Shown here: piece after piece, positions 5,833 through 61,481 of the stretch
Position numbering within the stretch: position 1 is the first letter of the stretch
Layout: each line of letters begins with the position of its first letter
Notes under the pieces: generated by a model
What the model saw: only the letters and a program-made list of their open reading frames with translations
The model's database searches: none
Told to the model about the DNA's origin: nothing
Program-made: the position numbers and the translations under genes
Virus record (IMG/VR): IMGVR_UViG_3300005002_000001
DNA from: a virus
DNA: 64,000 nt
Strand: one strand, 5' to 3'

Positions 5833-6119
5833 GCGACAAGCAGAGCAAGCAATCGGACCAACTGGACAGCTGGATGTCTATGCTGACGGACGACAAGGAG
5901 CGGGCCAGCGTCATCAAAGCCCAGATCGAGGCCAACGCCCAGACGGAGCGCGTGCGGGTCGAGCAGGTCGAGCAGTCCCGCCGGGCCGACATCGCCACCG
6001 ATGGCTTCCAGGGGTTTCGCATCGTCGCCGTCTTCGCCATCATGGCGGCCATCGCCGGTTCGACGTGCGTCGGCTATCACGCCATCGAGCTGAAGGCGGG
6101 CGCCTCCCAGCAGAAGTAG
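5829..6119 (+). CDS. small membrane-anchored protein with coiled coil
   Basis: ATGA overlap; C-terminal hydrophobic stretch FRIVAVFAIMAAIAGSTCVGY. Confidence 0.5.
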   Translation: MSDKQSKQSDQLDSWMSMLTDDKERASVIKAQIEANAQTERVRVEQVEQSRRADIATDGFQGFRIVAVFAIMAAIAGSTCVGYHAIELKAGASQQK

Positions 6120-6128
6120 GAGCTTTTC

Positions 6129-6542
6129 ATGGATCATCGGGAGCAGATCGCTCGACTCGTCGAGCTGCACGCCCAGGGCGTCATCTCTCGCCGGACCCTC
6201 ATCGAGGCGGCCGGTCTGGGCGACGTCATAAAGGACGACGAGGATAACAACGTGGCCGACGAGGTCGAGAATGTCGACGAGGACGACTTCCTGGATCGCA
6301 CCTATCCCCTGGGCGCGTTGATCCGGCCTAGAGTGCCGCTATCGGTCGGCATCAGCCTGTCGACCCGGCCCGGAGGCAAACCGCTGGCCGACGGCGAGCG
6401 CGCTCCCGTCGCCGTCCAAGTGAAGGCCTCGGGCTACTGGACCGTCGTCGCTCATCGCTCGGGGTGGACCAAGGTCGCCTCGGCCGACGGCCGCGGCGCG
6501 GGCTGGACCTTCTACGTCCGGGACTACTTTGAGCGCGTCTAA
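6129..6542 (+). CDS. GDL-WTV-GW family small protein (acidic linker + SH3-like C-terminus)
   Basis: SGYWTVVAHRSGWTKVASADGRGAGWTFYV; RBS aggag upstream. Confidence 0.6.
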   Translation: MDHREQIARLVELHAQGVISRRTLIEAAGLGDVIKDDEDNNVADEVENVDEDDFLDRTYPLGALIRPRVPLSVGISLSTRPGGKPLADGERAPVAVQVKASGYWTVVAHRSGWTKVASADGRGAGWTFYVRDYFERV

Positions 6543-7848: not shown

Positions 7849-8093
7849 AGCCAGGAGATTTGCTGCGACAAACGCTCGCCGCCTCCCTGCGCGGGGGCGG
7901 AATGCAGCTTCTAAATGAGAGGACGCCCGAGCCCACCTACAATTTCAAGTACTCGAACCACAATTCCCTCTGGTGGACCGTCCTGGCCGTCTATGACGAC
8001 GAATACATCGAGATCCTCTCCCATTACAATCATGAGCGTGGATTCGTCCATCGCCGCGATTGGGACAACTTCGAACTGGTAGTCGAGCAATGA
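7806..8093 (+). CDS. GDL-WTV-GW family protein
   Basis: PGDLLRQ ... LWWTVLAVYDDEYIEIL. Confidence 0.5.
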   Translation: MRVARFHSIYAYDLKPGDLLRQTLAASLRGGGMQLLNERTPEPTYNFKYSNHNSLWWTVLAVYDDEYIEILSHYNHERGFVHRRDWDNFELVVEQ

Positions 8094-8566
8094 ACATCTT
8101 CGTCCTGGACACCGATCCCGTCCGCGCCGCCCAGATGCAGTGCGACAAGCACGTCGTCAAGATGATCGTCGAGTCGGCGCAGATGCTGTGCAACGCCCTG
8201 CCCCTCCAGTTCGCCTACTACGAACGCACCCATTTCAATCACCCGTGTTCCGTCTGGGTCCGCGCTTCGCGCGAGAACTACCTTTGGCTGTGCGAGCACG
8301 CCCTCGAACTCTGTCACGAGTATACTCGTCGCTACAAGAAGACCCACTCCACCGAATGGGTCATCCTGCTCTGCATATCTCTCGCCGAGCTCGTACCGAG
8401 CTCGCGGCTGACTCCTTTTGTCATCTGCGTGCCCGACGACTGCAAGACTCCCGATCCCGTCGAGTCCTATCGACTGTGCTATCTCAAGCACAAGTCCCGT
8501 TTCGCCAAGTGGAGATTCGCTTGCTCACCCGCGCCCGCTTGGTACCAAACGCTTCAAAACACGTAG
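8090..8566 (+). CDS. hypothetical protein
   Basis: ATGA start; N-terminus MNIFVLDTDPVRAAQMQCDKHVVKMIVESAQML; no function assigned. Confidence 0.5.
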   Translation: MNIFVLDTDPVRAAQMQCDKHVVKMIVESAQMLCNALPLQFAYYERTHFNHPCSVWVRASRENYLWLCEHALELCHEYTRRYKKTHSTEWVILLCISLAELVPSSRLTPFVICVPDDCKTPDPVESYRLCYLKHKSRFAKWRFACSPAPAWYQTLQNT

Positions 8567-12101: not shown

Positions 12102-12842
12102 ATGAGAGTGGCCGTCGTATTACCCAGTCACGTCCGGACTTTCGAGCGGTGCTGGCCGAATTGGCTCAAGCACGTCGTCGAGCCCAACGGTTGGAAGTGC
12201 CGATACTTCATTCACACGTACGACCTGGCGGAGATGACGCAGGAGACGAGCCGGAAGCTCGACAAGGTCGTCCGACCCCCGGAAGCGGAGTCACGCGCTC
12301 TCGTTGAAAAAGCTCTAGCGACTCTGGCTCCGCACACCGAGTTCGTTGCTGTCGATTCGAACCCGCCCAATGTCGCTCGTACCCTCAGAGAATTGAGAGG
12401 CTGCGGCATCTACCAAGGCCGCGGCGGCAACGCGGAGGCACAGTGCCTGCAGACGAAGAAGCTGCAGATGGCCTACGAACCGCTCAGGACTCGTTTGAAC
12501 GAGTTCGACCTGGTGGTGCGCTGGCGCTTCGACATGGAATTCGCCTCTCCCATCGAGGTTCCCACGCTGCGCGACGACCAGATCGTCACCATCGCTCGCC
12601 TCAGCATGCCGCACGATTGCATGTGCGATTGCTTCGCCGTCATGCGTCCCATCCAGCGAGTGTGCGATGCCTATTTCGACGTTTACGACAGCCTCCTGCC
12701 CAGGGCCCAGAGAAAGAACTATCTGAAGCGCTACACCCTCGAAAATCATTTCGGTCTCAATATGATCGAGCACGGCATCGAGCGCCTCGTCCTTCCCAAC
12801 CCGGACAATACGATCAAGTGCGTCCGCTTCGACGATCCCTGA
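12102..12842 (+). CDS. hypothetical protein, paralogue of 28381-29184 (possible glycosyltransferase-like)
   Basis: N-terminus MRVAVVLPSHVRTFERCWPN matches MRIAAIWVGHVRTFHRIWPEN in the other copy; shared RxxDxEF block; function inferred weakly. Confidence 0.5.
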   Translation: MRVAVVLPSHVRTFERCWPNWLKHVVEPNGWKCRYFIHTYDLAEMTQETSRKLDKVVRPPEAESRALVEKALATLAPHTEFVAVDSNPPNVARTLRELRGCGIYQGRGGNAEAQCLQTKKLQMAYEPLRTRLNEFDLVVRWRFDMEFASPIEVPTLRDDQIVTIARLSMPHDCMCDCFAVMRPIQRVCDAYFDVYDSLLPRAQRKNYLKRYTLENHFGLNMIEHGIERLVLPNPDNTIKCVRFDDP

Positions 12843-24367: not shown

Positions 24368-24898
24368 CGTCGGATCGTCGCTCTCTTTCTATTTGTGGTG
24401 GCGTTCATCGCGTGCTCTCCTAGTTGGCGTAAGCCGCCGGCTTCTTTGGCAAATTTGGATCGAGCAACGACCGTTTACGTCTGTCTCGATCTGCCCGATT
24501 CTCAGCAAAAATCGGCGGTCGAAGCCGTCGAGATGTGGGACAAGGCTGTCGGCAGCTGGAAGCATCTCGTGCCTGTCAAATCGCACGACGACTCCTTCTG
24601 CGGATTTTGGGTGCACGAGACGTCAGAGGATCATCCCAAAGATCCATCAGCGTTGGCTTGGGCCTCGATGATCGGCGGGCGAGAGATCTACATGAAGATC
24701 GGTCGCTACGAAAAGGATACGAAAGGCATCCTGACGCACGAACTGGGTCACGCCTTCGGGGCTCAGCACATCAAAGGTACGCTAATGAATAAGAACTGGG
24801 AGCCCGGCATGTTCGTTTGCCCGGACAATCCGACGGTAGCCCAGGTCGCCGCCTTTCACAACATCAACCTCGAACTGCTTAGCTGGTGCACTCCATGA
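24356..24898 (+). CDS. secreted zinc metalloprotease, metzincin type
   Basis: N-terminal signal peptide IVALFLFVVAFIACS; HELGHAFGAQH (HExxHxxGxxH) and downstream Met (TLMNK). Confidence 0.65.
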   Translation: MIMHRRIVALFLFVVAFIACSPSWRKPPASLANLDRATTVYVCLDLPDSQQKSAVEAVEMWDKAVGSWKHLVPVKSHDDSFCGFWVHETSEDHPKDPSALAWASMIGGREIYMKIGRYEKDTKGILTHELGHAFGAQHIKGTLMNKNWEPGMFVCPDNPTVAQVAAFHNINLELLSWCTP

Positions 24899-25404
24899 TC
24901 TTTTCGATCGTCTTTTTCGCGGCTTACATCGTCCTGATCACTCTCTTCGGTCACGTGGCCCATTGGGCGATGCACAAGCCGTGGATGAAGGCACTCTATC
25001 GAGCTCATATGGTGCATCACTTCAAGCTGTATCCCATTGATGATTTCGAGTCCGACAGCTATCGATCGGCCGGCAAAGATAGCGGCACGATCTTTTTCAC
25101 AGTGCTAGCGATTCCCTTGCTAGCGATTCCTATCGTCGCTTGCTTGCTGACTCCCCTCTCTCTTTTTTGGGCCATCGGTTCGATCGTCGGTGGCATCGTT
25201 TTCGGGCTGCTCAATGACTGGGTGCACGCGTCGTTCCACGTTCGTAAAAATCTTCTGCGATACATTCCCGGTTGGCAAAAGATGAGAGACCGTCATTATC
25301 AGCACCATGTCGACGTGACGGCTAACTACGGGATTTGGCTCTTTAGCTGGGATCGAGTCTTCGGCACGCTTCGCGACCAAGTACAAAAGAGCGATCCGAA
25401 GTAA
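24886..25404 (+). CDS. fatty-acid hydroxylase / sterol desaturase superfamily membrane protein
   Basis: His boxes HKPWMKALYRAHMVHH and HYQHHVD between hydrophobic segments. Confidence 0.5.
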   Translation: MHSMIFSIVFFAAYIVLITLFGHVAHWAMHKPWMKALYRAHMVHHFKLYPIDDFESDSYRSAGKDSGTIFFTVLAIPLLAIPIVACLLTPLSLFWAIGSIVGGIVFGLLNDWVHASFHVRKNLLRYIPGWQKMRDRHYQHHVDVTANYGIWLFSWDRVFGTLRDQVQKSDPK

Positions 25405-25433: not shown

Positions 25434-25679
25434 ATGGGATACCATACCCGAGAATTCGATAAGGGCGTCTACGGAGAAGTCAGCAAAATCCAGGAGGAGT
25501 ACGAAGAGTTCCTGGACGCTGTCAAGCAGAACGCCAAGGTTTTGGAACTGTGCGAGCTAGCCGATCTTTACGGCGCCATCGCTGGATACGTCGAGCAGAA
25601 TTTTCCAGGACTCAACATGGATGACATCAAACAGATGTCGGACATGACTCGCTCGGCCTTCGAGGAAGGCAAAAGATGA
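25434..25679 (+). CDS. small MazG-like nucleotide pyrophosphohydrolase domain protein (tentative)
   Basis: 81 aa all-helical; EEYEEF / ELADLYGAIAGYVEQ acidic motifs; GGAGATGG RBS. Confidence 0.35.
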   Translation: MGYHTREFDKGVYGEVSKIQEEYEEFLDAVKQNAKVLELCELADLYGAIAGYVEQNFPGLNMDDIKQMSDMTRSAFEEGKR

Positions 25680-26281
25680 ACCAAGAGATCAGGTGGGACC
25701 TCGTCGCTGCCGCTCGATCCTGGTACACTCGGTGGGGTTACACGTACGTCGAAACGCCTTGGTACGTGGCGGGAAGGGCGCTTAGAGCGACATTACCCGA
25801 AGGCAAACACGGATTTCAGCTTTGCCATCCCGAATTATTCAAAGGGTGGCTGGTGGGATCGGCCGAGCAGGGATTCCTGCAGATGATGCTCGACGGAGAT
25901 CTCAAACCGGGCAAATACTTTTCAGCTACTCCCTGCTTTCGCGATGATCCCGAGGACGAGCTGCACAACACTTACTTCTTCAAGGTCGAGCTCATCGAGA
26001 TCGAAGATCGCCTTCAGGTGCTGGACGACGGGAATGTCTATCGACTCATGAGCGCCTGCAAGAAGTTTTTCGAGGAATACTCTCACCAAGAGGTCAAAGT
26101 GAGACCCACTCCCGAAAATGGGCCATCGACTTACGATCTAGAACTCAACGACATCGAGATCGGATCTTACGGACTTCGAAAGCACGAGAATCACAGATGG
26201 GTATATGGGACAGGGTTAGCCCTTCCGAGATTCAATTTCGCAGCAGCGAGTCGAGGTACTCCCATCTGGGATCCGAAATAG
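25676..26281 (+). CDS. minimal class-II aminoacyl-tRNA-synthetase-like catalytic core (201 aa)
   Basis: motif 1-like WGYTYVETPW, motif 2-like TPCFRDDPEDELHNTYFFKVELIEI (fRdE), motif 3-like GSYGLRKHENHRWVYGTGLALPR; no anticodon-binding domain. Confidence 0.5.
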   Translation: MNQEIRWDLVAAARSWYTRWGYTYVETPWYVAGRALRATLPEGKHGFQLCHPELFKGWLVGSAEQGFLQMMLDGDLKPGKYFSATPCFRDDPEDELHNTYFFKVELIEIEDRLQVLDDGNVYRLMSACKKFFEEYSHQEVKVRPTPENGPSTYDLELNDIEIGSYGLRKHENHRWVYGTGLALPRFNFAAASRGTPIWDPK

Positions 26282-27965: not shown

Positions 27966-28409
27966 ATGAAGACGTTTCGTATCAAGCTGGGAGACCTCCG
28001 AAAGTTCATTCGAGAAGTCTACGAATGCGGCGACATGATGCCTGAGGCCGGAGGAGACATCTACGGCGCGGGATCGGCTGGCCCGGGAGAATCGTCCGGA
28101 AAAACGATGGCTGAAACCGATTCAGGACCGTCTTGGCCGCATCCGTGGCCCAAACCCAAAAATTCAGAAATGATAAAGGCTCATCGAGCTGTGATGGATT
28201 ATCTGGGTCCTGAGCATGTCGGAGACCTGGTCAACGCAAAATACGTCCTGGACCCTCGAGTCAAGGGAGTCGTCGGTATCCGTCTCGAAGACGGCGGGCA
28301 GCACGCCGGCACGACGATAGATTTTGTCGTCTACAACTGCGACAGAGGTTGCAGCGCCGACGATGTCGATGAAGTTCAGTTCACATCTTGGCCCCCGACC
28401 GTGTACTGA
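27966..28409 (+). CDS. protein with shared N-terminal leader MKTFRIKLGDLRKFIREVY
   Basis: fourth member of the N-terminal leader family; upstream acttaaagggATG resembles the ATATTTAAAGCC motif. Confidence 0.5.
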   Translation: MKTFRIKLGDLRKFIREVYECGDMMPEAGGDIYGAGSAGPGESSGKTMAETDSGPSWPHPWPKPKNSEMIKAHRAVMDYLGPEHVGDLVNAKYVLDPRVKGVVGIRLEDGGQHAGTTIDFVVYNCDRGCSADDVDEVQFTSWPPTVY

Positions 28410-29184
28410 TCAGCTTTTGAGCTAGCGTCTTTCCGTCTTCCTTGCTGAAGCGGACGATTTCCAACAAGTGCTTCCCGTTGACGGGCTCGACATATCGAGC
28501 CTCGAGACGTTTAATACCCGAGCGCTTGCAATGCAATGCGTAATTCTGTTCGGGCCACCAATCTCGTTTTTCTTCGAGCAGCATCTTGGGCACGCTCTCT
28601 CCCATTCTCATGTAGCGATCGATCGCTTTGGGATGGCCGATGGCGAATCGATCGTCCATACCGTCGTGGAAAAAGGGCGGACCAAGACTGTCGAACGTGT
28701 AGAGCTCGTCCTCCGTCAAGCCGGCTAGCTTGATGTCGACAAGACCTTGAAATTCAACATCAGGTCGATGGAAAACGATGGCATCGAACTCTTCCCAGTC
28801 AGGGAGATGAGTTTTGAAAGAGTTCCACGCTTCGAGCCGTTTGGTGAATTGGTGGACGACGGTCCCAACGTGGCCCGTATTCATGTCGGGTCGCTTCTTG
28901 CAGATCTCGTTATAAAGATCGATCGAAGCCTGTGACATATCTCTTATGTCTAAGACTTCAGGGTCGAGGGCTAACTTGACGTATTCGAGGGCGTCTTCCG
29001 CCGAATAATCAGCGGGTGGATCATCCGGTCGGTTGCGTCGGCATTGCCCGGCGGGATACGTATAGAAAAAGTTGCGAACGGGTTCCGTCAGACCCAATCG
29101 ATTCCAGCATCTTTCTGTCACGTTTTCGGGCCAGATCCGATGAAAAGTTCTGACATGTCCCACCCAGATTGCTGCAATCCTCAT
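28381..29184 (-). CDS. hypothetical protein, paralogue of 12102-12842 (possible glycosyltransferase-like)
   Basis: shared N-terminus MRxAxxxxxHVRTFxRxWPxN and HRPDVEF / DDRFAIG blocks. Confidence 0.5.
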   Translation of the reverse strand: MRIAAIWVGHVRTFHRIWPENVTERCWNRLGLTEPVRNFFYTYPAGQCRRNRPDDPPADYSAEDALEYVKLALDPEVLDIRDMSQASIDLYNEICKKRPDMNTGHVGTVVHQFTKRLEAWNSFKTHLPDWEEFDAIVFHRPDVEFQGLVDIKLAGLTEDELYTFDSLGPPFFHDGMDDRFAIGHPKAIDRYMRMGESVPKMLLEEKRDWWPEQNYALHCKRSGIKRLEARYVEPVNGKHLLEIVRFSKEDGKTLAQKLISTRSGAKM

Positions 29185-29210
29185 CTTCTGATTATAATAC
29201 TTATCGTAAG

Positions 29211-29738
29211 ATGAGGATCATCTCCCACCGCGCCAACTTAAATGGCCCTAGCGAAAACTATAGCGAGTTCAAAATCATCAGAGCGCTTAGGATGGGATTC
29301 GATATCGAGATCGATATCAGATGCGATTCGAATCGCCTATGGGTCGGACACGATCAGCCCGATTTTCTCTTGCCCAGAGACGTGACGACTAATGATATGA
29401 TCTCGAGGATTTGGTTTCATGCCAAAGACCTCGCGTCGGTCGAGATGCTGCCCGAACACGCTTTGGTCTTTTGTCATGCCGACGACGATTTTGTCATCGT
29501 TTCCGGAGATAAGCGGATCGTCTGGTTGCATCCCAGGTTGAATCCGCAGATCGACGACCTGGTCGCTTCCGGTTCGATCACACCCGCTCGGACCATCGTA
29601 TTAGATGTCGCTGGTCACACCAGGATCGATCCAGAATATTTCGTCAAAAAGGGTTATGGGTTCATGGGTGTCTGCACCGATTGGCCCATTGATTGGTTGC
29701 AGTTCTTCGTCTCAAACCTACAGAAAAACTTCAAATGA
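29211..29738 (+). CDS. glycerophosphodiester phosphodiesterase (GDPD)-like protein
   Basis: IISHRANLNGPSENYSEF...GFDIEIDIRCDSNRLWVGHD matches GDPD HR..PEN...E.D...DG..VV.HD. Confidence 0.6.
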   Translation: MRIISHRANLNGPSENYSEFKIIRALRMGFDIEIDIRCDSNRLWVGHDQPDFLLPRDVTTNDMISRIWFHAKDLASVEMLPEHALVFCHADDDFVIVSGDKRIVWLHPRLNPQIDDLVASGSITPARTIVLDVAGHTRIDPEYFVKKGYGFMGVCTDWPIDWLQFFVSNLQKNFK

Positions 29739-30367
29739 ATCAGACAGTCGTCGTTTTTGATCTGGACGGCGTCGTCCTGGATGCAAAAGAATTACATCGA
29801 GAGTGCTTCATCGAGGCTTGCAAGATGGGAGCCGGTTTGATTATCGATGTCGAGTTTCACGAGAATCATCTCGAGGCTCTGAGCACCAAACAGAAGGTCT
29901 CCAAGCTGATGGACATGAAACTTTTGAAGGACGAAAATGAAGCTTTCGAAGTCGCCTGGCGCAAACAGGAACTGACGACGGCGCGCATACCGACCGCGCC
30001 GCTGACTGTTCCTTGGATGCAAAGCATCTTTGCTCACATCAAAGAGCGAGGATTCAGCTTGGCGCTTTGCAGCAATTCAGTCAGAGCGACATGCACGACG
30101 GCTCTCGAAAGCTACGATCTCCTCAAGTATTTCGATCTGATCGTTTCGAACGAGGACGCGCCGCACCAGAAGCCTTCTCCGGCACCCTATCTGTCGGTGG
30201 CGGCGACGCTAAACACTGTCCCATCGAAGCTTATTGTTTTTGAAGACTCGGCCGTCGGCATCGCTTCGGCCCACGCGGCGGGATGCATCGTGACTCCCGT
30301 CTTCGATCCCAAGCACGATCTCGATCTCGAAAGGATTCAAAGATGGCTGAAGTACATTGTCGGTTGA
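29735..30367 (+). CDS. HAD-superfamily hydrolase (beta-phosphoglucomutase-like)
   Basis: VVVFDLDGVVLD motif I, LALCSNS motif II, LIVFEDSAVGIASAHAAG motif IV; ATGA start. Confidence 0.65.
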   Translation: MNQTVVVFDLDGVVLDAKELHRECFIEACKMGAGLIIDVEFHENHLEALSTKQKVSKLMDMKLLKDENEAFEVAWRKQELTTARIPTAPLTVPWMQSIFAHIKERGFSLALCSNSVRATCTTALESYDLLKYFDLIVSNEDAPHQKPSPAPYLSVAATLNTVPSKLIVFEDSAVGIASAHAAGCIVTPVFDPKHDLDLERIQRWLKYIVG

Positions 30368-31107
30368 TCGTTCTTGCGGCAGGAGAGGGCAAGAGATTTC
30401 AAGAAGTGGGTTATAAGGAGCCCAAACCCTTCATCGAAATCCTGGGAGTTCGAATGATCGAGCTCGTCATCGCTAATATGAGATCCCAGTTGGGTGTTGA
30501 CTGTCCCGTCACGATTATCACACAAGATAAGTTTGGACGGATCTTCGGGCAAACTGAATTCTATCTCGACAAGACGAGCGTCATCAGGCTAGGCTCTTTG
30601 ACAGGAGGCGCCGCCGAGACGGCGCTCTGGGGTTTGAAACACGGGCCCGACATGGGAGAGAAGATCGTCATCGCTAACTGCGATCAGCTCGTCCTCTTCG
30701 ACGGCAAGAAGATGCTCAAATCGCTCGATAAACACGCCGGATCGATCCTAACGTTTGATGAGCCCGGACGCAATCCCAAATGGTCGTATGCCGAGATCAA
30801 CAAGAAGGGTCTCATCACGCGCGTCGCCGAAAAGAATCCCATCAGCGATCACGCGACGGTGGGCGTGTACGGTTATGCGAATCGTAACGTCGCTATCGAT
30901 GCCATCTCTAAAATGATGGCGGCCAACGATCGATTCAACAACGAATTCTACTTGTGCCCGGCTTACAACTACATCGACGGGACAATTTCTAACGTTTCTT
31001 CGACTCGCATGTGGGGTCTCGGCACTCCGGAAGATGTCCAGACAGCGATTGCCGACAAGGACTTTGCCACCGAAATCGAGACGATCCGCCGTATTGTAAT
31101 GCCATAG
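30343..31107 (+). CDS. sugar-/alcohol-phosphate nucleotidyltransferase (cytidylyl/NTP-transferase fold)
   Basis: LIVLAAGEGKRF...PKPFIEI G-rich signature; start chosen at internal ATG of track ORF 30283-31107. Confidence 0.55.
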   Translation: MAEVHCRLIVLAAGEGKRFQEVGYKEPKPFIEILGVRMIELVIANMRSQLGVDCPVTIITQDKFGRIFGQTEFYLDKTSVIRLGSLTGGAAETALWGLKHGPDMGEKIVIANCDQLVLFDGKKMLKSLDKHAGSILTFDEPGRNPKWSYAEINKKGLITRVAEKNPISDHATVGVYGYANRNVAIDAISKMMAANDRFNNEFYLCPAYNYIDGTISNVSSTRMWGLGTPEDVQTAIADKDFATEIETIRRIVMP

Positions 31108-31166: not shown

Positions 31167-32102
31167 ATGTATCGTAGGATCGCGCTTGCTTTAGCGGCGC
31201 TCTCTCTCATCGGATGCGGCAGCCAAGACGTTCCTCCGGCCCACAAGGGTCGTAAATTCGACAAGACGGGAGCCGCGGCTCTCTGGGCCGGCGGAGCCGG
31301 CTTCGAGGGTCCGATCCTCGGGCCCGGCACGTACTACACGGGCATCTACCCCGAGATTCGCATGGTAGAATGCGGACAGCGCACCGTCAAAGAGTCGCTG
31401 ACGGCTCTCACCAAGGACGGCGTCCAGTTCTCTCTCGATGTCTACGTCTCGTACAGCGCGGCCTGCGACGAAGAAAAGACCGTCCAGACGCTGCTCGAAA
31501 AGCTTTCTCCCGAGGGCAAGCAGCCGGTGCCCGAAAAGGGCAAGGAAGACGCGTCGCAGCACGCTAGCGCCGCCGCCGATCCGACGCTGACGATCACAGC
31601 CGATCAGGTTTATCGGGTCTTCATCCGCCCGGCGATGGGCGAGGCCGTTCGCGAAAGCGTCTCTCCTTACATCGCCAACGATGTCAACGAGAAGCGCGAA
31701 GAGATCTTCGACAAGGTCAAGAAGTCCTTCGAGGAGAACCTCAAGAAGCAGCAGCAGAAACTCGTCACCATCTACACGATGAACCTCTCCAACCTCGACT
31801 TCCCGGATGCGATGGACGCGGCCAACGCGGCCCGCGCTGTCCAAGCCATCGAAAAGGACAAGGCGATCGCCGCCCGAGCGAAGGTCGAAGCCGAGATCGA
31901 GACGGCCAAGCTCGAAGTGACGAAGCGCGAGGTCGAGGCGCAGGCCGAGGCCAAAAAGATCGACGTCATCGGCGCGGCCCTTCACCGCAATCCCGAGTAC
32001 TACATCCGCGATGTATACTTCTACGCCGCCGACAAGGGTGGGTCGGTCATGGTCCCGTCGAATCCCAACGTCATCCTCCAGATGACGCCCAAGAAGCCCT
32101 AA
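31167..32102 (+). CDS. SPFH/band-7 domain lipoprotein
   Basis: lipobox signal MYRRIALALAALSLIGCGS; SPFH-like core followed by Ala/Glu-rich coiled coil AARAKVEAEIETAKLEVTKREVEAQAEAKK. Confidence 0.5.
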   Translation: MYRRIALALAALSLIGCGSQDVPPAHKGRKFDKTGAAALWAGGAGFEGPILGPGTYYTGIYPEIRMVECGQRTVKESLTALTKDGVQFSLDVYVSYSAACDEEKTVQTLLEKLSPEGKQPVPEKGKEDASQHASAAADPTLTITADQVYRVFIRPAMGEAVRESVSPYIANDVNEKREEIFDKVKKSFEENLKKQQQKLVTIYTMNLSNLDFPDAMDAANAARAVQAIEKDKAIAARAKVEAEIETAKLEVTKREVEAQAEAKKIDVIGAALHRNPEYYIRDVYFYAADKGGSVMVPSNPNVILQMTPKKP

Positions 32103-33629: not shown

Positions 33630-33793
33630 CTAAGGTAGGAGCCCGACAAGTGATCGATGCTCTGGCGCTCAGAGTCTTCGAAATCGAAGAGATCGAAACA
33701 CGGCTTTCGATCGAAAAGCAGCAGCTAAGGGAGCGGATCCACGAGCTCGAGTGGTTCGAAGACAGTGACGTGGTGGAGTTCAATGGCGAATGA
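33626..33793 (+). CDS. small coiled-coil protein (55 aa)
   Basis: hand translation MTKVGARQVIDALALRVFEIEEIETRLSIEKQQLRERIHELEW...; ATGA at both ends. Confidence 0.4.
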   Translation: MTKVGARQVIDALALRVFEIEEIETRLSIEKQQLRERIHELEWFEDSDVVEFNGE

Positions 33794-34728
33794 AAAATCG
33801 AAACGACAAGATCCTCCTGCGAATCGCCCAGGGCGACGCCTACGCCATGGCCGTCGAGTACTGCAAGCGTACCGAGCATCCGGAACTCTTCGACGAGGTC
33901 CTCAAGTTCGAGCGCTTTCACAAGCATCCGACGCATCACAAGCTCAATCCGGGCATGTATACTGACGACACTCAGATGTCTGTTGCCGTGACGGAAGCCC
34001 TGCTGGCCGACGCGTCGGGCCTCTACTGGGACAACTACCTGACGACTGATATGTTCGCCTGGCACTTCTTCGAAGCCTTCAAGCGGGATCCCCGGGACGG
34101 CTACTCTAGAAAGTTTCAGGAGATCCTCGAGCGGTCGCGAACAGTCAACGAGCTCAAGCTCAATCTAGTGCCCGATTCGAATAAGAACGGGGCCTGCATG
34201 CGGGCCGTTCCGATCGGCGTGCTTCTCACCCCCGAGGAAGTGATCAAAGTTTGCGAGACGCAAGCCAAAGTCACTCATGATACGTTCGGAGGGATCCGGT
34301 CGGCGCAAGTCGTCGGACTCATGTCTCACTTTGCACTCTACGAATCGGCTCCTTTTTCGGATCTGCCGGGCTATGTTGCCCGTTACTTGCCGGATCTGAA
34401 TTTTCTGAGCGAACCCTGGAGGGGTGGAGTGGGTCTGCAGCATAGCGACCCGCACGGTCGCGGGATCGGTATCAACACGGCTCACGCCGTCATGACTTTG
34501 CTCATCGAGCAACCATCGTTGATGGATATCCTGCGGCAAACCATCGAATGGCGCGGCGATACCGATTCGGTGGCCGCCGTCGCTTGGGGCATCGCCTCGA
34601 CTCGGTATCCCAACGAAATCATACCCGATTTTCTCGAGCATGCGCTCGAAGCGACAGGCAATCTGAAGTACGGCCCGGACTTCCTGTTGAAATTGGGCAA
34701 GCGGTTGATGAACGAATACGACGTGTGA
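33790..34728 (+). CDS. ADP-ribosylglycohydrolase (ARH/DraG family)
   Basis: RIAQGDAYAMAVEY, MYTDDTQMSVAVTEALL, C-terminal WRGDTDSVAAVAWGIAS - both metal-binding signature regions. Confidence 0.75.
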   Translation: MKNRNDKILLRIAQGDAYAMAVEYCKRTEHPELFDEVLKFERFHKHPTHHKLNPGMYTDDTQMSVAVTEALLADASGLYWDNYLTTDMFAWHFFEAFKRDPRDGYSRKFQEILERSRTVNELKLNLVPDSNKNGACMRAVPIGVLLTPEEVIKVCETQAKVTHDTFGGIRSAQVVGLMSHFALYESAPFSDLPGYVARYLPDLNFLSEPWRGGVGLQHSDPHGRGIGINTAHAVMTLLIEQPSLMDILRQTIEWRGDTDSVAAVAWGIASTRYPNEIIPDFLEHALEATGNLKYGPDFLLKLGKRLMNEYDV

Positions 34729-34735
34729 GGGAACT

Positions 34736-35503
34736 ATGGACCTCTCTGACAGAATGAAGCAGTACGAGGGAACCTACCGAGGTTACCTGAAGATCGAAAA
34801 CGAGCATGACGTAGTCGTCATTCGTGTCGACGGTCGGGCATTTCACACCTACACTCGAGGGGCTAAAGAGCCGTTCGACGAGATGCTGCAATCTTCGATG
34901 AACGAGGTAGCTCGCGAACTGTGCGAGAACATTCAGGGAGCGCAGCTGGCCTATGTCCAATCGGACGAGGTGTCCGTCATCGTCTCTGCGGGCAACGGAG
35001 CCAACATCTGGTTCGATGGAAACATCCAAAAGATGTGCTCCATCTCGGCAGCGATCGCTTCGACCCGCATGACTTTGGAGTCTCCAAGAGTCTTCGGCAA
35101 GATGAGAGTCGCTCAGTTCGATTCTCGAGTCTTCGTCCTGCCCAAGGAAGAAGTCATCAACTACCTCATCTGGAGGCAATCGGACGCCACTCGAAACTCT
35201 GTTCAAATGCTAGCTCGATCCCTCTTTTCCCACAAGCAGTTGCTGGGAAAGTCGTGCGACGTCATGAAGCAGATGGTGAGAGAAGCCGGGAGACCTTGGG
35301 AGAACGAAGCCATCGGCTCGACCCGGGGTCGCTGCATCATCAAGCAATCCTTTCAAGAGAACGTCGAATACGTCGACAAGCGTACCAAGCAAATCAAAAA
35401 CGCCGTCGCCGAACGAACTCGCTGGATCCCCATCTGGGATATCCCGTGCTTCGTGCAAGACAGGACTTTCGTCGCGCAGCAGCTCAAAAAGGAACAGCAA
35501 TGA
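34736..35503 (+). CDS. thg1: Thg1-like tRNA 3'-5' nucleotidyltransferase (tRNA-His guanylyltransferase family)
   Basis: VVIRVDGRAFHTYTRGAKEPFDEML...AYVQSDEVSVIV aligns with the Thg1 core RLDGRNFHRF...AYGQSDEYSFVF. Confidence 0.75.
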   Translation: MDLSDRMKQYEGTYRGYLKIENEHDVVVIRVDGRAFHTYTRGAKEPFDEMLQSSMNEVARELCENIQGAQLAYVQSDEVSVIVSAGNGANIWFDGNIQKMCSISAAIASTRMTLESPRVFGKMRVAQFDSRVFVLPKEEVINYLIWRQSDATRNSVQMLARSLFSHKQLLGKSCDVMKQMVREAGRPWENEAIGSTRGRCIIKQSFQENVEYVDKRTKQIKNAVAERTRWIPIWDIPCFVQDRTFVAQQLKKEQQ

Positions 35504-44941: not shown

Positions 44942-44958
44942 GGCTTTAAATATCGAAG
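44942..44958 (-). promoter_or_regulatory. ATATTTAAAGCC motif immediately 5' of ATG (minus strand), overlapping upstream stop codon
   Basis: 17-mer ATATTTAAAGCCATGGC identical to the one at ~22534. Confidence 0.35.
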
Positions 44959-46124
44959 CTCATCGTTCGACCGGTACGAATTCCGTTTTGAAATCCAGGC
45001 TGGCTGCCTGACCAAGGGATCAGAATCTTTCCGGCCGTAGCAGTCGACGTACCAAACGCAGCCGAGGACGAAGTAGGAGTGACGGTATGAGTCGCCATAC
45101 CGATTCCGTAATTGAGATGATTGATCGTGCCCAGGATTCCGTTATCGATGCCCTCTGATAGCACTACCCACATCGGAAATCGCTCATATGATCCGCTGTT
45201 GACGAAGTTGTTATAGCCGATCGTGCTGTTGACCAGCACTTGAGCCACCCCGTAAAGCCTCGACCCGCTTGTCAGCGTAGGATGAGCTATAGCTCCATCA
45301 ATCGTATCGACGCTGGGGCTAGTAGCTAAGCCATTAGTAGTCGTCCATGTATTTCCCCAAGGACTGTTGCCGGCGCCGCCGTTGCTGATCATGACGTACG
45401 GACTCTCAGGATAAGGCGTGATGCCGGGCCGAGGAGCGTATGATCCGAAGTGGATCACTCGATAGTTGCCGTCGGCTAGTGAATCTGTCAATACTGTCAG
45501 ACTATCTTCGCTGGCGATAACATGATATCTCAATGGTACGATAGTAGTCGAGTTATCATTTACGATCGACATGTAATTTCGACTGCCCGAATACGTGCCA
45601 CCGTGGCTAAGTGATCTAGGGAAAAATGATCCCTTACCATCGGGCGTCAGTTTCCAAACCGGATCTCCGATAGATGCTGAAGTGAGGCTGTACGTACCGT
45701 TCCACGGGCCGTCAGCCGAACCGGTGTTCGAGCCCGAGGGATGACTAGCAAAAGAGAAACCGAGATTTCCCCTCGCAGTCGACGTATTTGTCGTCGCCCA
45801 GCCGGCCGGACGCATAGGTCCATTGGAGACGACCGACCCGGTGGCAACAAACACCATGCAGTCGAACTTGCCCATCGAAGCAGAGTGGAATCGAAAGATA
45901 GCAAAAGCTCGATGCCCGGCGCCGATCGTTCCCTGATCCCAGAACGTAAATCCTGTACCGGCGACTCCGTAATTGGCAGCGATCATTTCGATGCCAAGAT
46001 CCGAGCAGCTCGAAAGATGCTGCACGGTATTGACGAACATTTCGCCGACCGTTCGACTGTCCGTTCCCGTGGAATCGGATGTCGGGTTCATATAGCAATC
46101 TACTCGTCCTCTATATTTGGGCAT
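44946..46124 (-). CDS. virion/tail-fibre-associated protein, paralogue of 46133-47389
   Basis: shared N-terminus MPKYRGRVDC and many conserved blocks (FHSASMGKFD, HPSGSNTGSADGPWNG, TPYPESPY). Confidence 0.55.
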   Translation of the reverse strand: MPKYRGRVDCYMNPTSDSTGTDSRTVGEMFVNTVQHLSSCSDLGIEMIAANYGVAGTGFTFWDQGTIGAGHRAFAIFRFHSASMGKFDCMVFVATGSVVSNGPMRPAGWATTNTSTARGNLGFSFASHPSGSNTGSADGPWNGTYSLTSASIGDPVWKLTPDGKGSFFPRSLSHGGTYSGSRNYMSIVNDNSTTIVPLRYHVIASEDSLTVLTDSLADGNYRVIHFGSYAPRPGITPYPESPYVMISNGGAGNSPWGNTWTTTNGLATSPSVDTIDGAIAHPTLTSGSRLYGVAQVLVNSTIGYNNFVNSGSYERFPMWVVLSEGIDNGILGTINHLNYGIGMATHTVTPTSSSAAFGTSTATAGKILIPWSGSQPGFQNGIRTGRTMSFDI

Positions 46125-46132
46125 CTAAAACC

Positions 46133-47389
46133 TCAGACATCGAAATTCATGGTTCGGCCTGTTCTGTGTTGCCAATTGGTGCCCGGGGCCGAACCGGACC
46201 ACGGCACAATAATCTTGACGCTCTGAGCTCCTGCCAATCCCATAGCGGCCGAGCCTGATGCGTAACTGACGGAATTCGGATTCATCCCGTACCCCCATGC
46301 TACGTGTTTGGCCAGGCCCAGAATGCCATTGTTAGTTCCTTCGGAGATAGCTACCCACATGGGTATTTTTTCAAAAGATCCGCTATTGACGAAATTCGTG
46401 TATCCAGCGATCGAAGCCAATCCACCGATGGTAACATGCCCAAAGATCAAAGCTCCCGATAACAAGCTGGGATGCGCAACAGCACCGTCGGGAGTTCCTG
46501 TTCCTCCGGCGACGCCGGCCGTCTGACCGATGTTTGCCTGTGTATAAAAAGCACCGACAGGGTTGACAGTCGATACAGTGTTTGTAAACATGTAATACGG
46601 GCTTTCGGGATAAGGAGTCGATCCCGAGCGCGGGAAATACGGCCCGAAATGTGTCACCTTATACGAGGCATCGTTAGCGTGATCGACCAAGAATGTGAAG
46701 GAATCCTCGCTCAACAAAATGTGATAACGAGCAGGCAAAAATGTAGCTTCGGAGCTTACTTGAGAGCCGTCTTCATTAAGAGTCGCTAGATAATTGCGGC
46801 TAGCCGAGTATGTGCCGGCGATGCCGTTGGCGCGTGGAAAAAACGCGCCTTTGCTGTCAGCGGTCGTCTTCCACAACGGATTGTTAGCAGACAGTCCCGA
46901 GTTTCCGATGCCCAGGGTGGCGGACGTCAAGCTATAGCTTCCATTCCACGGACCGTCGGCTGAGCCGGTGTTCGAACCCGAGGGATGGCATGCAAAAGAC
47001 ACGCCGAAATCTCCATAGAGATAATTCGAACCGACAAATGAGGTTGTCTGCTGGGACATGACAACTCCGCCGAAAGTCTGACCGCTGCTAGCTGAGACTT
47101 GATAGAGTAACATGTCGAATTTACCCATCGAAGCTGAGTGAAATCGAGCGACTATCCAAGTTCGGGGCCCAGTAGGAGTGCCTTGATCCCAGAATTGGAA
47201 TCCCGTCCCACCGGCGCCGTAATTAGCAGCAATGATTTCGATGCCAAGTTCGGGTCCGTACTGCTGTATGTGTTGCACAGTGTTGATGAACATTTCACTG
47301 TGTGCACGAGGACCTCTCCAGTTGCCGGCATTGGGATCTACCTGCAATGGAAACGAAAAGCAATCTACTCGTCCTCTATATTTGGGCAT
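46133..47389 (-). CDS. virion/tail-fibre-associated protein, paralogue of 44946-46124
   Basis: see 44946. Confidence 0.55.
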   Translation of the reverse strand: MPKYRGRVDCFSFPLQVDPNAGNWRGPRAHSEMFINTVQHIQQYGPELGIEIIAANYGAGGTGFQFWDQGTPTGPRTWIVARFHSASMGKFDMLLYQVSASSGQTFGGVVMSQQTTSFVGSNYLYGDFGVSFACHPSGSNTGSADGPWNGSYSLTSATLGIGNSGLSANNPLWKTTADSKGAFFPRANGIAGTYSASRNYLATLNEDGSQVSSEATFLPARYHILLSEDSFTFLVDHANDASYKVTHFGPYFPRSGSTPYPESPYYMFTNTVSTVNPVGAFYTQANIGQTAGVAGGTGTPDGAVAHPSLLSGALIFGHVTIGGLASIAGYTNFVNSGSFEKIPMWVAISEGTNNGILGLAKHVAWGYGMNPNSVSYASGSAAMGLAGAQSVKIIVPWSGSAPGTNWQHRTGRTMNFDV

Positions 47390-47401
47390 GCGTTACCTTA
47401 A

Positions 47402-50386
47402 TTAGGTCGTTTCTACTTCAAGCATCGCGCTCTTGACTATAGCGGCTCTATTAGAACCGGTGGGTGTACACCAGAATCTAGCTTCGATGATGCCGGATCC
47501 TGTCACCGAGCTCAGAGCGGCGGTGATCTCTCTAGAGAAATAAGTAAATGTCGTCGATGATCCCGTGACGACGGAACCTGAGATGGGCTGCGGAATTCCG
47601 TTGATGATTCCGTTGTAATCATACAGATCGGCATACGCTACTGTCGTACCCGAGACAGGAGCCAAGATCGTTCTGAAATAGAACTTCTTAGTACCAGCAG
47701 GCAATTGCGTCTGATCGAGATATGCCATTCCTAGAGATTCATTCGACCCCGATCCCTGATCTGTCGTGGCGATACCATTCATCAGATTGAATTTGTTGGA
47801 CTGAGTGACGGGTGTGCCCGAGAATTGGACTTCGAGCCAGGCACTCTTGCAGATAGCAGCGAGATCCGATCCGGTCGGCGTGCACCATAGACGAGCTTCA
47901 AAAATTCCGGAGCCCGTGACGCTCGTCAGGACGCTCGTCAGGTCCTTAGAAAAATAAGTGAATGAGGTGGAGGAACCGGTAACGATCGAGCCCTGAATTA
48001 TCTGAGGGACCCCTGAGATGATTCCGTTGTAGTCGTAGAGCTCTAGGTAAGCGACGGTCGATCCTGTCGATGGCGCCAATATCGATTTGAAATAGTAGCT
48101 TTTGGTACCGATCGGTAGCGTCGATTGATCGAAGTACGTCATACCGATAGATTCGACGGACGACGATGGCTGGGTCGTTGTGACGGTCTCGTGAGTAATT
48201 CCGTATCTCATGATACGGTTTGAACTGCCGTTGGTCGAGATGACGACGCTGCTGTTGGGACCGTTATCGACGATGGAGATGCCCGTGCCGGCCGTCAACA
48301 CTCTTTCGTTGGGCAGAGAAGACGTAGTCCCTAGAACGACGTAGGAGGCAGAAACATCGGCTCCTCCGCCCGATCCTCCGAACGATCCGGATCCGATCGT
48401 TATGGGATCGGCGATTCGAAACACAGTGACGCGACCGGTCACCATATTTTCTCCGTCTATTGGATTCGAAACGTTCCACGTGCCGGCTGTGCCGGTGTTT
48501 CTGACATATTGCAGTCTGAAGCTGCTGCCCGATATCAGAGAAATGATGCCATCTAGGCGGGCGTTGCCTGCAGCGTCTGACGCGTTGTCATATGACGTCT
48601 GCTGGATTATCGAGCCGTCCGAACCGCTGAGCCTAAAGGCGAGATATCCGGTCGACATGGCATAGTTGAAGTCCGAATGCCAGGCGTAATATCCGTCTTT
48701 GCTAACGAACCACGTCGATGCGCTTCTAGAAATACCGTTGCGAATTCGATCTTGGAATCCCGATGCGATGTTTGTGAAATCGGTCCAGGTGGTATTGTTA
48801 CCCCAGTTCAAAGACTGAGTCGTAAAACCGTCGTATATGTCAGCTGATTGAGATGATGCTCCCGTCAGACCGATAGTGACGCTGCCGCCCGGACCGCCGT
48901 CCGTGATCGCGATGCCCGTGCCAGCCGCTAGCACTCTTTCATTAGGCAGAGATGCCGTCAACGCCATGACGACGTAAGACGCGTCTCCATCTCCCGTTCC
49001 GGAGCCGCCGCCCGAACCTGAGAACGTTCCGGAAGCCGTCGAACTGATCGTGATCTGTCCGTTGGAAGCCGAAGTGATGATGATATTCGATCCGGCGACA
49101 AGATACGACTGGCCGTTCGTCAACCTCGTTAGAGATCCCGAAAGACCGGCCGTGTGATTCGTCACGCCCGAGAATGTTGAACCCGAAATAGTGGCGACGA
49201 TTCGATCGTCGATGAAGATGTTATAAGTGCCGCCGGCACCGCCATCGGTGAATTTGATGCCATTGATGGGAGCAAAGACACGTTCTGCCGTCAGCGTACC
49301 GTCAGCTGTCAATACGAGATAGGTCGCATTGATCGGTGCATCGATAGAAGAGGATGCAGCCAGGCCTGTAATCGTCACCTGTCCGTTGGAGGCCGACGTG
49401 ACCGTGATGCCGGTACCTCCGACGATGTAGGATCGACCGTCCGTCAAGCGTGTCAACGATCCTGAGAGACCCGCGGTATGAAGCGTCGCTCCAGTGAAAG
49501 TGGATCCCGAAATAGTGGCAACGACGCTGTTATTGATGGCCCACGTGACAGGACCGTTCGCGCCGCCATCGGTGACTCGAATTCCCAGGCCACCGCTGAC
49601 GAAACGCTCGTTAGTCAGCGATGCCGTCAAAGCCATGACGACGTATGACGCGCCTGGATCGGCATTCGCGCCCGAGCCTGTTGTTTGCGTGATCGACGTT
49701 ACTCGTCCTTGAGAATCGACCGTGATTTCGCTGGGATATGTGTAAGTTCCAGGAGTTCCCGTATTAGCCAGTCCTAGATTGGCGTTGGGAGACGTCGTAT
49801 CGAGCGTCAGATGTCCCGGGGTGACGGACAACACTCGAGAGTTAGAAAGACCGATTTCAGTTCCCCAAACGACATAACGAGAATTATTCGGAGCTCCGCC
49901 GCCGGCCCCTGAGGCACCGAGAGCCAGCGAGACCCAGCCTTGTCCCGTCCAAACGAACATGATTGCGCCGAAAGCGACAACGATGTTCTGAGCCGTCTGG
50001 CCGTCGATAGTCGATCCATCGGTCGTCTGAATTCGAATGGGCGTTGCGTTGCTAGCAGTTCCTCGATAATCTTTGATGATATGGGTCTGACCAGCATTAG
50101 CGGGCGGCGTGGGCAAATTGACCGTGACTTGCACTCCCGAATCATTCAGGATGAAGTACGCGATCTTGTCGTTGGTTACTCTGACATTAGCCGCATCAGC
50201 CGGACTACTGATCTGAAGAACGAACGCGTTGATATCTAGAGCGCCTCTTAGAATGAGCGCGCCTGGACTGCCTTCAAATCCGACCTGCAGATCTTTGGGC
50301 GTGACGACAGTGACAACGTCACCCTTACCGTCACGAATGACGATCTGCGGAGTCCTCTTAGCTTCTGCTACGTTGAAACTAGGCAT
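47402..50386 (-). CDS. repeat-rich fibre protein (tail-fibre-like), 994 aa
   Basis: internal ~90-aa tandem repeats (VATISGSTF(T/S)G(A/V)T(L/N)HTAGLSGSLTRLT(D/N)G...), three ASYVV(M/L)...NERV blocks, duplicated ~130-aa C-terminal domain (…YFDQSTLPIGTKSYYF… / …YLDQTQLPAGTKKFYF…). Confidence 0.6.
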   Translation of the reverse strand: MPSFNVAEAKRTPQIVIRDGKGDVVTVVTPKDLQVGFEGSPGALILRGALDINAFVLQISSPADAANVRVTNDKIAYFILNDSGVQVTVNLPTPPANAGQTHIIKDYRGTASNATPIRIQTTDGSTIDGQTAQNIVVAFGAIMFVWTGQGWVSLALGASGAGGGAPNNSRYVVWGTEIGLSNSRVLSVTPGHLTLDTTSPNANLGLANTGTPGTYTYPSEITVDSQGRVTSITQTTGSGANADPGASYVVMALTASLTNERFVSGGLGIRVTDGGANGPVTWAINNSVVATISGSTFTGATLHTAGLSGSLTRLTDGRSYIVGGTGITVTSASNGQVTITGLAASSSIDAPINATYLVLTADGTLTAERVFAPINGIKFTDGGAGGTYNIFIDDRIVATISGSTFSGVTNHTAGLSGSLTRLTNGQSYLVAGSNIIITSASNGQITISSTASGTFSGSGGGSGTGDGDASYVVMALTASLPNERVLAAGTGIAITDGGPGGSVTIGLTGASSQSADIYDGFTTQSLNWGNNTTWTDFTNIASGFQDRIRNGISRSASTWFVSKDGYYAWHSDFNYAMSTGYLAFRLSGSDGSIIQQTSYDNASDAAGNARLDGIISLISGSSFRLQYVRNTGTAGTWNVSNPIDGENMVTGRVTVFRIADPITIGSGSFGGSGGGADVSASYVVLGTTSSLPNERVLTAGTGISIVDNGPNSSVVISTNGSSNRIMRYGITHETVTTTQPSSSVESIGMTYFDQSTLPIGTKSYYFKSILAPSTGSTVAYLELYDYNGIISGVPQIIQGSIVTGSSTSFTYFSKDLTSVLTSVTGSGIFEARLWCTPTGSDLAAICKSAWLEVQFSGTPVTQSNKFNLMNGIATTDQGSGSNESLGMAYLDQTQLPAGTKKFYFRTILAPVSGTTVAYADLYDYNGIINGIPQPISGSVVTGSSTTFTYFSREITAALSSVTGSGIIEARFWCTPTGSNRAAIVKSAMLEVETT

Positions 50387-50400
50387 TTAGTCGAAGCCCG

Positions 50401-53310: not shown

Positions 53311-53313
53311 CTG

Positions 53314-56193: not shown

Positions 56194-56238
56194 CTCTGAC
56201 GGATATAATCTACACTAAGTACGCCATCATGAAAGCTC

Positions 56239-57977: not shown

Positions 57978-57980
57978 CGA

Positions 57981-61460: not shown

Positions 61461-61481
61461 TGCTAGTCCTTAAAATACAAC

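Follow-up and report, generated by a model that had tools for sequence, protein, structure and literature searches.

A compact putative viral carbohydrate cassette built from uncharacterised protein families

The 64,000-nucleotide stretch of DNA analysed here (IMG/VR record IMGVR_UViG_3300005002_000001), referred to throughout as the window, carries at 28381-31107 four adjacent open reading frames (ORFs A to D) that form a cluster of an ordinary kind, a viral carbohydrate cassette, drawn from uncharacterised protein families. An initial annotation had placed a glycosyltransferase-like protein, a glycerophosphodiester phosphodiesterase (GDPD)-like enzyme, a HAD phosphatase/mutase and a nucleotidyltransferase (NTase) at these positions, and profile or fold tests bear out the four ORFs and their enzyme assignments; what it observed is thus confirmed and what it made of the observation is supported in part. 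We favour, with moderate confidence, the view that the four genes act as one cassette, making a nucleoside diphosphate-activated donor (NDP-X) within the infected cell's cytoplasm and passing X on to an acceptor. Taken together, they are best read as the ingredients for producing and transferring such a donor. The observations behind this view are the folds and motifs of the proteins, the fusion of the HAD and NTase domains in relatives, and the linkage of the genes together with its breadth. In the best reading, the 'LPS-like' (lipopolysaccharide-like) clusters of cyanomyoviruses and the surface-glycan islands of SAR11, SAR86 and Prochlorococcus have this cassette as their minimal core.

Conservation of the unit in phages and cells

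ORF A (28381..29184, minus strand, 267 amino acids), predicted to be a soluble protein of the GT-A glycosyltransferase (GT) fold, is transcribed divergently from ORF B (29211..29738, plus strand, 175 amino acids), a minimal GDPD-like barrel of the phospholipase C (PLC)-like phosphodiesterase type that belongs to phrog_34507 and is called mini-GDPD below, ORF C (29735..30367, plus strand, 210 amino acids), a HAD-IA hydrolase with a C1 cap, and ORF D (30343..31107, plus strand, 254 amino acids), an NTP_transferase of the type represented by PDB entry 4evw (4EVW-type). The stop codon of ORF B and the start codon of ORF C overlap as ATGA and ORFs C and D overlap by 25 nt; ORFs B, C and D are predicted to be a tight plus-strand operon with translational coupling. 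A paralogue of ORF A, described below, lies at 12102..12842 (plus strand, 246 amino acids). No hydrophobic stretch compatible with a membrane span is present in ORFs A to D or in this paralogue.

The grouping of ORF A with B-C-D is a real unit and not a matter of chance. Five further contigs from this lineage have the arrangement, at 60-100% identity (L004, L012, L013, L014), and so does a forest-soil contig (L005) in which ORF A is 43% identical and the other neighbours are different. Searches of phages with tblastn gave matches to ORFs B and D only in Synechococcus myoviruses, with RSL1 and S-SKS1 in addition for the NTase, and no match to ORF A. All 17 isolate phage records with an ORF B-like gene also have the NTase. 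HAD and NTase make up one protein of 461 amino acids in S-CAM9, DSL-LC03 and other cyanophages, and because ORF C is closer to the HAD domain of this fusion (32% identity, 2e-29) than to the adjacent free HAD (24%, 5e-15), ORFs C and D are a split version of a natural fusion; ORF C is orthologous to the HAD part of the cyanophage HAD-NTase protein, and ORF D to the NTase domain of the phrog_3980 fusion proteins. As for ORF A, a hidden Markov model (HMM) of its family matches gp068 of S-CAM9 (4.8e-10), and an HMM of the wider superfamily finds three paralogues each in S-CAM9, DSL-LC03 and S-SKS1 (1e-44 to 2e-22 for the cyanophage paralogues) as well as gp209 of S-SM2, directly after the mini-GDPD. 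ORF A-like genes flank the HAD-NTase fusion in all four of these phages.

The same association recurs on a larger scale in viral contigs. A scan of IMG/VR with the NTase returned at least 582 loci, and co-occurrence was counted in the best 80: a HAD is present in 79, within the same ORF as the NTase in 75, an ORF B-like gene in 65 (within 3 kb in 64) and an ORF A-like gene in 54. Metagenomic contigs of cyanophage type have the unit beside RmlB/C/D-like proteins, DegT, UDP-galactopyranose mutase, methyltransferases and glycosyltransferases of families GT4/6/11/25. Nothing relevant to clusters of GDPD, NTase and HAD was found in the literature; mentions of a prasinovirus GDPD there were considered and set aside as unrelated to the mini-GDPD unit.

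Cellular genomes carry the unit too. A scan for the ORF B family, which covered 185,579 species genomes, yielded 61 cellular loci, in SAR11 (including HTCC9565 and a complete genome), SAR86, Prochlorococcus, Bacteroidia, bacteria of the candidate phyla radiation and archaea. The NTase clade adjoins the ORF B-like gene in 56 of the 61, usually abutting it, a HAD is present in 44, usually as the HAD-NTase fusion, and an ORF A-like gene in 13. Among 107 non-redundant flanking proteins, the most frequent Pfam families were NDP-sugar dehydratases/epimerases (9), WavE (6), RmlD (5), GT1/4 (4), GT61 (4), GT2 (3) and GT17 (2), and across related loci the neighbours include NDP-sugar dehydratases, epimerases, RmlC/RmlD, WavE and GT1/2/4/6/11/25/61, with RuBisCO-like proteins and PfkB/GHMP kinases as occasional flankers of the mini-GDPD/NTase pair. 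The complete SAR11 genome has the unit as an islet of four genes, flanked by housekeeping genes and adjacent to an integrase, that encode a double GT4 protein, a mini-GDPD, a HAD-NTase and a 239-amino-acid protein without assignment.

The closest known counterparts are the 'LPS-like' clusters of T4-like cyanomyoviruses (S-SM2, P-SSM2, S-SSM7, S-CAM9, S-SCSM2R), in which homologues of all four proteins occur together as the HAD-NTase fusion (phrog_3980), a GDPD-like protein of 152 amino acids (phrog_34507) and one to three ORF A-like 'hypothetical' proteins, so that HAD-NTase, mini-GDPD and a DUF7796-related GT-A protein are co-located at their core. The window differs from these clusters in having the four-gene core only, with HAD and NTase as separate genes, the order B-C-D and a divergent ORF A, and it lacks their epimerases, heptose genes and other GT families. 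Its phage lineage, with a GC content of ~55%, is unrelated to the cyanomyoviruses.

Fold and family of the four proteins

ORF D is the most readily placed of the four. It matches Pfam NTP_transferase (PF00483; E = 1.3e-10, 41.7 bits against a cut-off of 21.2) and phrog_3980 (1.2e-41), and it has both the AAGEGKRF motif (the G-x-G-x-R loop) and PKPF, as expected of a sugar-1-phosphate nucleotidyltransferase. Its closest solved relative is PDB 4evw from Vibrio cholerae (E = 4e-11 with the single sequence); a profile of ORF D and seven relatives matches this structure at 1.2e-33, followed by GlmU (1e-13), HddC (1.6e-11), ManC (1e-10) and RmlA (~1e-6), whereas IspD and LicC match over the N-terminal nucleotide loop only. 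The match to 4EVW is full-length, and the generic PDB name of that protein, 'nucleoside-diphosphate-sugar pyrophosphorylase', states no substrate, so no specificity can be read from it; the NCBIfam equivalog cut-offs for RmlA, GlmU, HddC, ManC, GalU and MurU are all unreached by ORF D.

ORF C belongs to the HAD hydrolases (HAD_2, E = 2.9e-22; Hydrolase, 2.8e-19; TIGR01509, 49.9 bits against a cut-off of 29.4), its sequence plainly shows the motifs FDLDGV, CSNS, KPSP and FEDS, and it has the features of a HAD-IA protein with a C1 cap. Among solved structures, it is closest to the sugar-phosphate phosphatase TM_1254 (4e-18) and to beta-phosphoglucomutases (~1e-14). A HAD immediately before an enzyme of the NTP_transferase family recalls GmhB, the heptose-1,7-bisphosphate phosphatase, and HddC, the heptose-1-phosphate guanylyltransferase that acts after it; the NTase profile has HddC structures among its better PDB matches, and some cyanophage clusters with the HAD-NTase fusion also carry GmhA and heptose kinase genes. 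However, GmhB is a capless HAD-IIIA protein and ORF C a capped HAD-IA protein, neither GmhA nor a kinase is present in the window, and the HddC equivalog model scores ORF D at E = 0.043, far below its cut-off.

ORF B has no Pfam GDPD match (PF03009) even at E <= 1 and none in NCBIfam; its sole match in PHROGs is phrog_34507 (6.9e-16), which has no assigned function there. Its family comprises more than 7,800 clusters of proteins of about 152 amino acids, and 50 members share the invariant residues H6, R7, N9, E33, D35, H47, D48, H70, K72, H89, D92 and D157, with E15 and N16 conserved in at least 90% of them. Among these, H6-R7, E15-N16, E33-x-D35 and H47-D48 correspond to the catalytic set of GDPDs: the family profile aligns with the solved GDPD 3i10 (E = 2.4e-5) motif for motif over HR, ENS, ExD and HD, and the fold is a TIM barrel of the PLC-like phosphodiesterase type. 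ORF B is thus best described, from its sequence and fold, as a predicted minimal GDPD-like barrel with an intact catalytic set. It has the barrel and the HR/EN/ExD/HD constellation in common with the GlpQ/UgpQ GDPDs, including the C-terminal domain of phage K gp155, but it is shorter (~150-175 amino acids against ~240, of which ~150 residues superpose), a histidine (H70-x-K72) appears to replace the third metal-binding glutamate of the canonical enzymes, and in genomes it goes with the NTase and not with Pho, Ugp or glycerol genes.

A separate observation concerns the mini-GDPD of S-CAM9, which was deposited with an internal start (6172-6459 of the locus, 95 amino acids) that cuts off the catalytic HR/EN/ExD/HD half; the full ORF of 152 amino acids runs from 6001 to 6459 of locus L001 (NC_031922.1, 152549-153007) and overlaps the end of the HAD gene.

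ORF A and the gene at 12102-12842, which the initial annotation had called its second copy, are true paralogues, 26% identical end to end (E = 6e-11), with H10, R12, D134, R140, D142, D178 and E212 invariant in both; the paralogue shares the N-terminal HVRTF motif with ORF A and has an R-F-D motif, and its surroundings are unannotated genes with no sugar genes nearby. Relatives are few: a word-indexed search of 5.8 billion proteins gave only nine close homologues, and 1.8 billion cluster representatives, searched exhaustively with an HMM, gave 475, only five of them below 1e-30. A degenerate-pattern scan of IMG/VR confirmed no member of the family, although the NTase scan did show the lineage there (contig L076, with an 85%-identical NTase). 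An AlphaFold model, confident although built on a shallow alignment (pLDDT 87.3, pTM 0.87), predicts a single Rossmann-like alpha/beta/alpha domain of GT-A topology, with retaining hexosyltransferases as best matches; in a library of viral structures the nearest entries, all uncharacterised, come from the cyanophages S-SKS1 and S-PRM1 and from giant viruses (Tupanvirus, Catovirus and a DUF7796 protein of Sylvanvirus), with GT6/GT8 next. In the model, strand 135-139 (AIVFH) runs into the invariant R140-P-D142 at the GT-A DxD position, and the equivalent residues are R-F-D in the paralogue and R-T/L/S-D in the cyanophage relatives. 'Glycosyltransferase-like' is therefore right at the level of the predicted fold, from which we infer a transferase activity.

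Remote relatives of ORF A are fused to S-adenosylmethionine-dependent (SAM) methyltransferases and reach Pfam DUF7796, and some consist of two or three ORF A-like domains in tandem. Comparison of the superfamily by hhalign with the single neighbours WavE, HtrL, Fringe, GT6 and GT25 gave nothing significant (best WavE, P = 0.003, probability 11%), and no literature on DUF7796 was found. From sequence comparison, the family is probably best regarded as virus-enriched, uncharacterised and distantly related to DUF7796. It has no detectable common sequence family with the enzymes for cytoplasmic glycosylation known from chloroviruses and giant viruses (e.g., PBCV-1 A064R), and its best matches among giant-virus proteins are themselves uncharacterised.

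A proposed donor pathway and its alternatives

Because HAD and NTase are fused in most relatives and the mini-GDPD is linked to them, HAD and NTase are likely to act on the same metabolite, with the mini-GDPD as a near-obligate third partner. One could picture ORF B as a metal-dependent phosphodiesterase that probably supplies or salvages a phosphomonoester precursor by cleaving a phosphodiester, and ORF C as trimming or rearranging the phosphorylated precursor, the two together readying the phosphomonoester that ORF D would couple to a nucleoside monophosphate, giving NDP-X. ORF A, and probably also the 12102 paralogue, would then be the soluble GT-A-fold transferase that uses NDP-X, and the variable glycosyltransferases of related loci (ORF A-like GT-A, GT4 and others) would likewise be donor users. 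What the observations lead us to infer, rather than show, is in which order these steps occur, what X is, what ORF B cleaves and which acceptor receives X. X is most likely a hexose-type sugar, given the similarity ranking of the NTase and the NDP-sugar-modifying enzymes among the neighbours of related loci; a polyol or ketol phosphate is less likely. In this phage, X may be passed to a host envelope glycan or a virion protein; the proteins are soluble and the module has no flippase or initiating transferase, which fits cytoplasmic protein glycosylation of the chlorovirus kind and the modification of lipid-linked host intermediates equally.

Several findings weigh against this pathway. ORF A has no match in Pfam, NCBIfam, PHROGs or PADLOC and is a member of no curated GT family, and instead of a canonical DxD it has a single aspartate (RxD); by analogy with metal-independent GT-A enzymes, its arginine could replace the metal. 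To our knowledge, no NDP-sugar pathway needs a phosphodiesterase, and the place given to ORF B is our conjecture. ORF C scores below every NCBIfam equivalog cut-off, with 71 bits for the beta-phosphoglucomutase (beta-PGM) model TIGR01990 against a cut-off of 189. In beta-PGM, R49, K117 and N118 hold the distal phosphate; aligned to the Lactococcus lactis enzyme, ORF C has T, V and R at these positions, and a two-residue deletion is absent. We thus rejected beta-PGM as the identity of ORF C on these residues and the equivalog cut-off, and of the phosphatase/mutase role first proposed, the phosphatase-type HAD stands as the predicted assignment and the mutase role is doubtful. If ORF C is purely a phosphatase, the source of a sugar-1-phosphate is left unexplained, since there is no kinase in the module. 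The NDP-sugar-modifying genes adjacent to the unit elsewhere could use donors made by other NTases. Finally, one protein of S-SKS1 (SWZG_00042; L007, 5007-6434) combines a 4EVW-type NTase with a genuine RibB domain (E = 1e-47) and is flanked by three ORF A-like genes. RibB is 3,4-dihydroxy-2-butanone-4-phosphate synthase, whose product is a non-anomeric phosphate ester; the fusion hints at a nucleotide-activated C4 ketol, and phosphates of polyols or ketols may therefore be activated by at least some NTases of the clade.

A bolder extension, which we offer only tentatively, is that mini-GDPD, HAD and 4EVW-type NTase constitute an undescribed and very widespread three-enzyme route that starts from a phosphodiester and dispenses with a kinase or classical mutase. 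The donor would perhaps be non-canonical (an unusual sugar phosphate, or the phosphate of a polyol or ketol), and it would serve bacteria abundant in the ocean (SAR11, SAR86, Prochlorococcus), their phages and this unrelated jumbo-type phage in decorating the surfaces of cells or virions through a new metal-independent GT-A family marked by R-x-D.

Among the alternatives to the NDP-X pathway, the one that survives best, though we think it improbable, is a CDP-glycerol or polyol-phosphate route, in which ORF B would release sn-glycerol-3-phosphate or a similar ester, ORF D would form a CDP-alcohol and ORF A would transfer the alcohol-phosphate or alcohol to a surface polymer, in the manner of teichoic-acid or LPS decoration. 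Such a route would make good use of the full GDPD catalytic motifs and fold of ORF B, it would be economical in that a phosphodiesterase yields a ready phosphomonoester in a module without kinase or mutase, and it would suit the non-anomeric product of the S-SKS1 RibB domain and the RuBisCO-like proteins and PfkB/GHMP kinases that sometimes flank the pair. However, the NTase profile lies nearest to sugar-1-phosphate NTases, with IspD and LicC aligning only over the loop, Pfam and NCBIfam found no TagD-type, TagF, TagB or LicD-type protein in ORFs A to D or the paralogue, and the predicted fold of ORF A is GT-A, with retaining hexosyltransferases as best matches, rather than TagF-like or LicD-like. 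The HAD would also be without a role, yet the best 80 of at least 582 viral loci include 75 in which it forms one protein with the NTase. The 'glycerol-phosphate/teichoic-acid type' label first given to the cluster is thus not specifically supported: the NTase resembles those for sugar-1-phosphates, TagD, TagF and LicD are missing, and the neighbours of related loci are NDP-sugar genes.

We regard it as quite unlikely that the cassette serves DNA hypermodification, with its NDP-sugar used by ORF A to glycosylate modified phage bases as a shield from restriction and CRISPR. There is precedent, in that phages which arabinosylate or pentosylate hydroxymethylcytosine encode their own NTP-transferase and GT-fold proteins (PMC12838424), and in Ralstonia phage RSL1 the NTase homologue adjoins annotated hydroxymethylcytosine glucosyltransferases and a gene of the thymidylate synthase family. 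The RSL1 locus, however, has no ORF A-like or ORF B-like gene, the known DNA glucosyltransferases are of other families, and the larger ORFs of the window that were scanned gave no Pfam match of thymidylate synthase or hydroxymethylase type. Because the mini-GDPD/HAD/NTase unit is common in cellular genomes, in glycan-type neighbourhoods, DNA glycosylation is unlikely to be its general function.

Even less probable is the synthesis of a small molecule such as a glycosyl-glycerol-type compatible solute, in which ORF B would provide glycerol-3-phosphate, ORF D the NDP-sugar, ORF A would join the two and ORF C would dephosphorylate the product, as in the GgpS/GgpP or GpgS/GpgP systems. Such a pathway would have the HAD-NTase fusion join its first and last steps; the solute synthase families are not the closest structural matches of ORF A, whose relatives include tandem arrays of two or three such domains, and the unit of the relatives sits in multi-GT clusters with dehydratases, aminotransferases and methyltransferases, which are typical of complex glycans. 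Chance neighbours or decaying 'stuffer' DNA, an idea raised for the cyanophage LPS clusters (PMC3037559), we consider hardly credible, and the comparative data contradict it: families with thousands of members keep their catalytic residues invariant, the genes overlap at start and stop codons, relatives have HAD and NTase in one protein, and the linkage recurs in phages, bacteria and archaea.

Genomic setting and wider meaning

The spacer between ORFs A and B (29185..29210, 26 bp) contains the palindromic ATTATAAT, so that either strand reads TATAAT, a perfect -10 hexamer, at ~7 nt from the respective ATG. The palindrome is conserved in close relatives only. The spacer is a possible shared bidirectional promoter with near-leaderless starts; a scan for sigma-70 promoters and terminators over 27.8-31.4 kb gave counts no different from those of shuffled sequence.

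Directly 3' of the NTase lies a gene for an SPFH/Band_7 protein (31167-32102, plus strand; phrog_200, 'lipoprotein') with the lipoprotein signal MYRRIALALAALSLIGC, a lipobox that suggests a Gram-negative host. This gene keeps its position after the NTase in L004, L012 and L014 and not in L005 or the cyanophages; we considered it as a fifth member of the cassette and rejected it, as it follows the NTase only in close relatives. Also plus-strand are a half-size EamA/DMT transporter (20533-20973, 146 amino acids), of the family and size class of ArnE/F-type flippase subunits, and a membrane enzyme of the FA_hydroxylase family (24886-25404, 172 amino acids), both conserved in relatives; with the SPFH lipoprotein, they appear to lend the region an envelope-related flavour. 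Other plus-strand neighbours are a protein of 201 amino acids resembling the core of class-II aminoacyl-tRNA synthetases (25676-26281), an ADP-ribosylglycohydrolase (33790-34728) and a Thg1-family tRNA-His guanylyltransferase (34736-35503), whose order around the cassette is kept in L004, L012 and L014.

The window is probably from a phage, and a large one. The initial annotation had assumed a phage, plausibly so: IMG/VR has a relative among its viral contigs, and the window has genes of phage type. A DenV-like pyrimidine-dimer glycosylase (8060-8566, plus strand) and endonuclease VII (62999-63604, minus strand) are DNA repair/processing genes of phage-like character; an AlkB-like 2-oxoglutarate-Fe(II) oxygenase (22595-23227, plus strand) is a further repair/processing gene, and a T4-type RNA ligase is encoded as well as Thg1. 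Related contigs reach 162 and 240 kb. A megablast search of 27-33 kb against 50,697 phage records gave no match, and no module protein matches a PADLOC defence model.

The window also encodes four proteins of 960-1160 amino acids without family assignment, one of them with a concanavalin-like lectin domain. A minus-strand run of large ORFs at 44946-62999 (392, 418, 994, 969, 959, 283, 295, 1159 and 505 amino acids) has no PHROG match; its only Pfam matches are Laminin_G_3/ConA-like lectin in the protein of 1159 amino acids and a weak CBM_X2, and its sole phage match is a stretch of 115 residues in Microcystis phage Mel-JY01. These may be the tail-fibre or baseplate genes of a lineage without described relatives. 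At 15937-18585 (plus strand), a protein of 882 amino acids is homologous to the major vault protein (MVP_shoulder, 7.9e-30; Vault_3, 4e-8; Vault repeat; Band_7) and has no match in PHROGs or PADLOC.

Carbohydrate clusters have been known in phages since 2010 without an explanation, their authors having asked whether they are functional or 'stuffer DNA' (PMC3037559), and the cyanophage 'LPS-like' clusters are treated as being of unknown function (PMC3037559; PMC12801897). The window isolates from such clusters a compact and very widespread mini-GDPD/HAD/NTase unit, with or without the GT-A protein, and does so in a wholly different phage lineage, in which it appears to be reduced to an irreducible core. 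With three or four soluble proteins of 150-270 amino acids, it is a small and tractable target for biochemistry. The near-obligate pairing of mini-GDPD and HAD-NTase extends over hundreds of viral contigs, the dominant marine heterotrophs and cyanobacteria. The identity of the donor would annotate several thousand clusters of 'hypothetical' proteins and would help to show how phages use sugars in infection, be it for receptor masking, virion camouflage or the protection of DNA.

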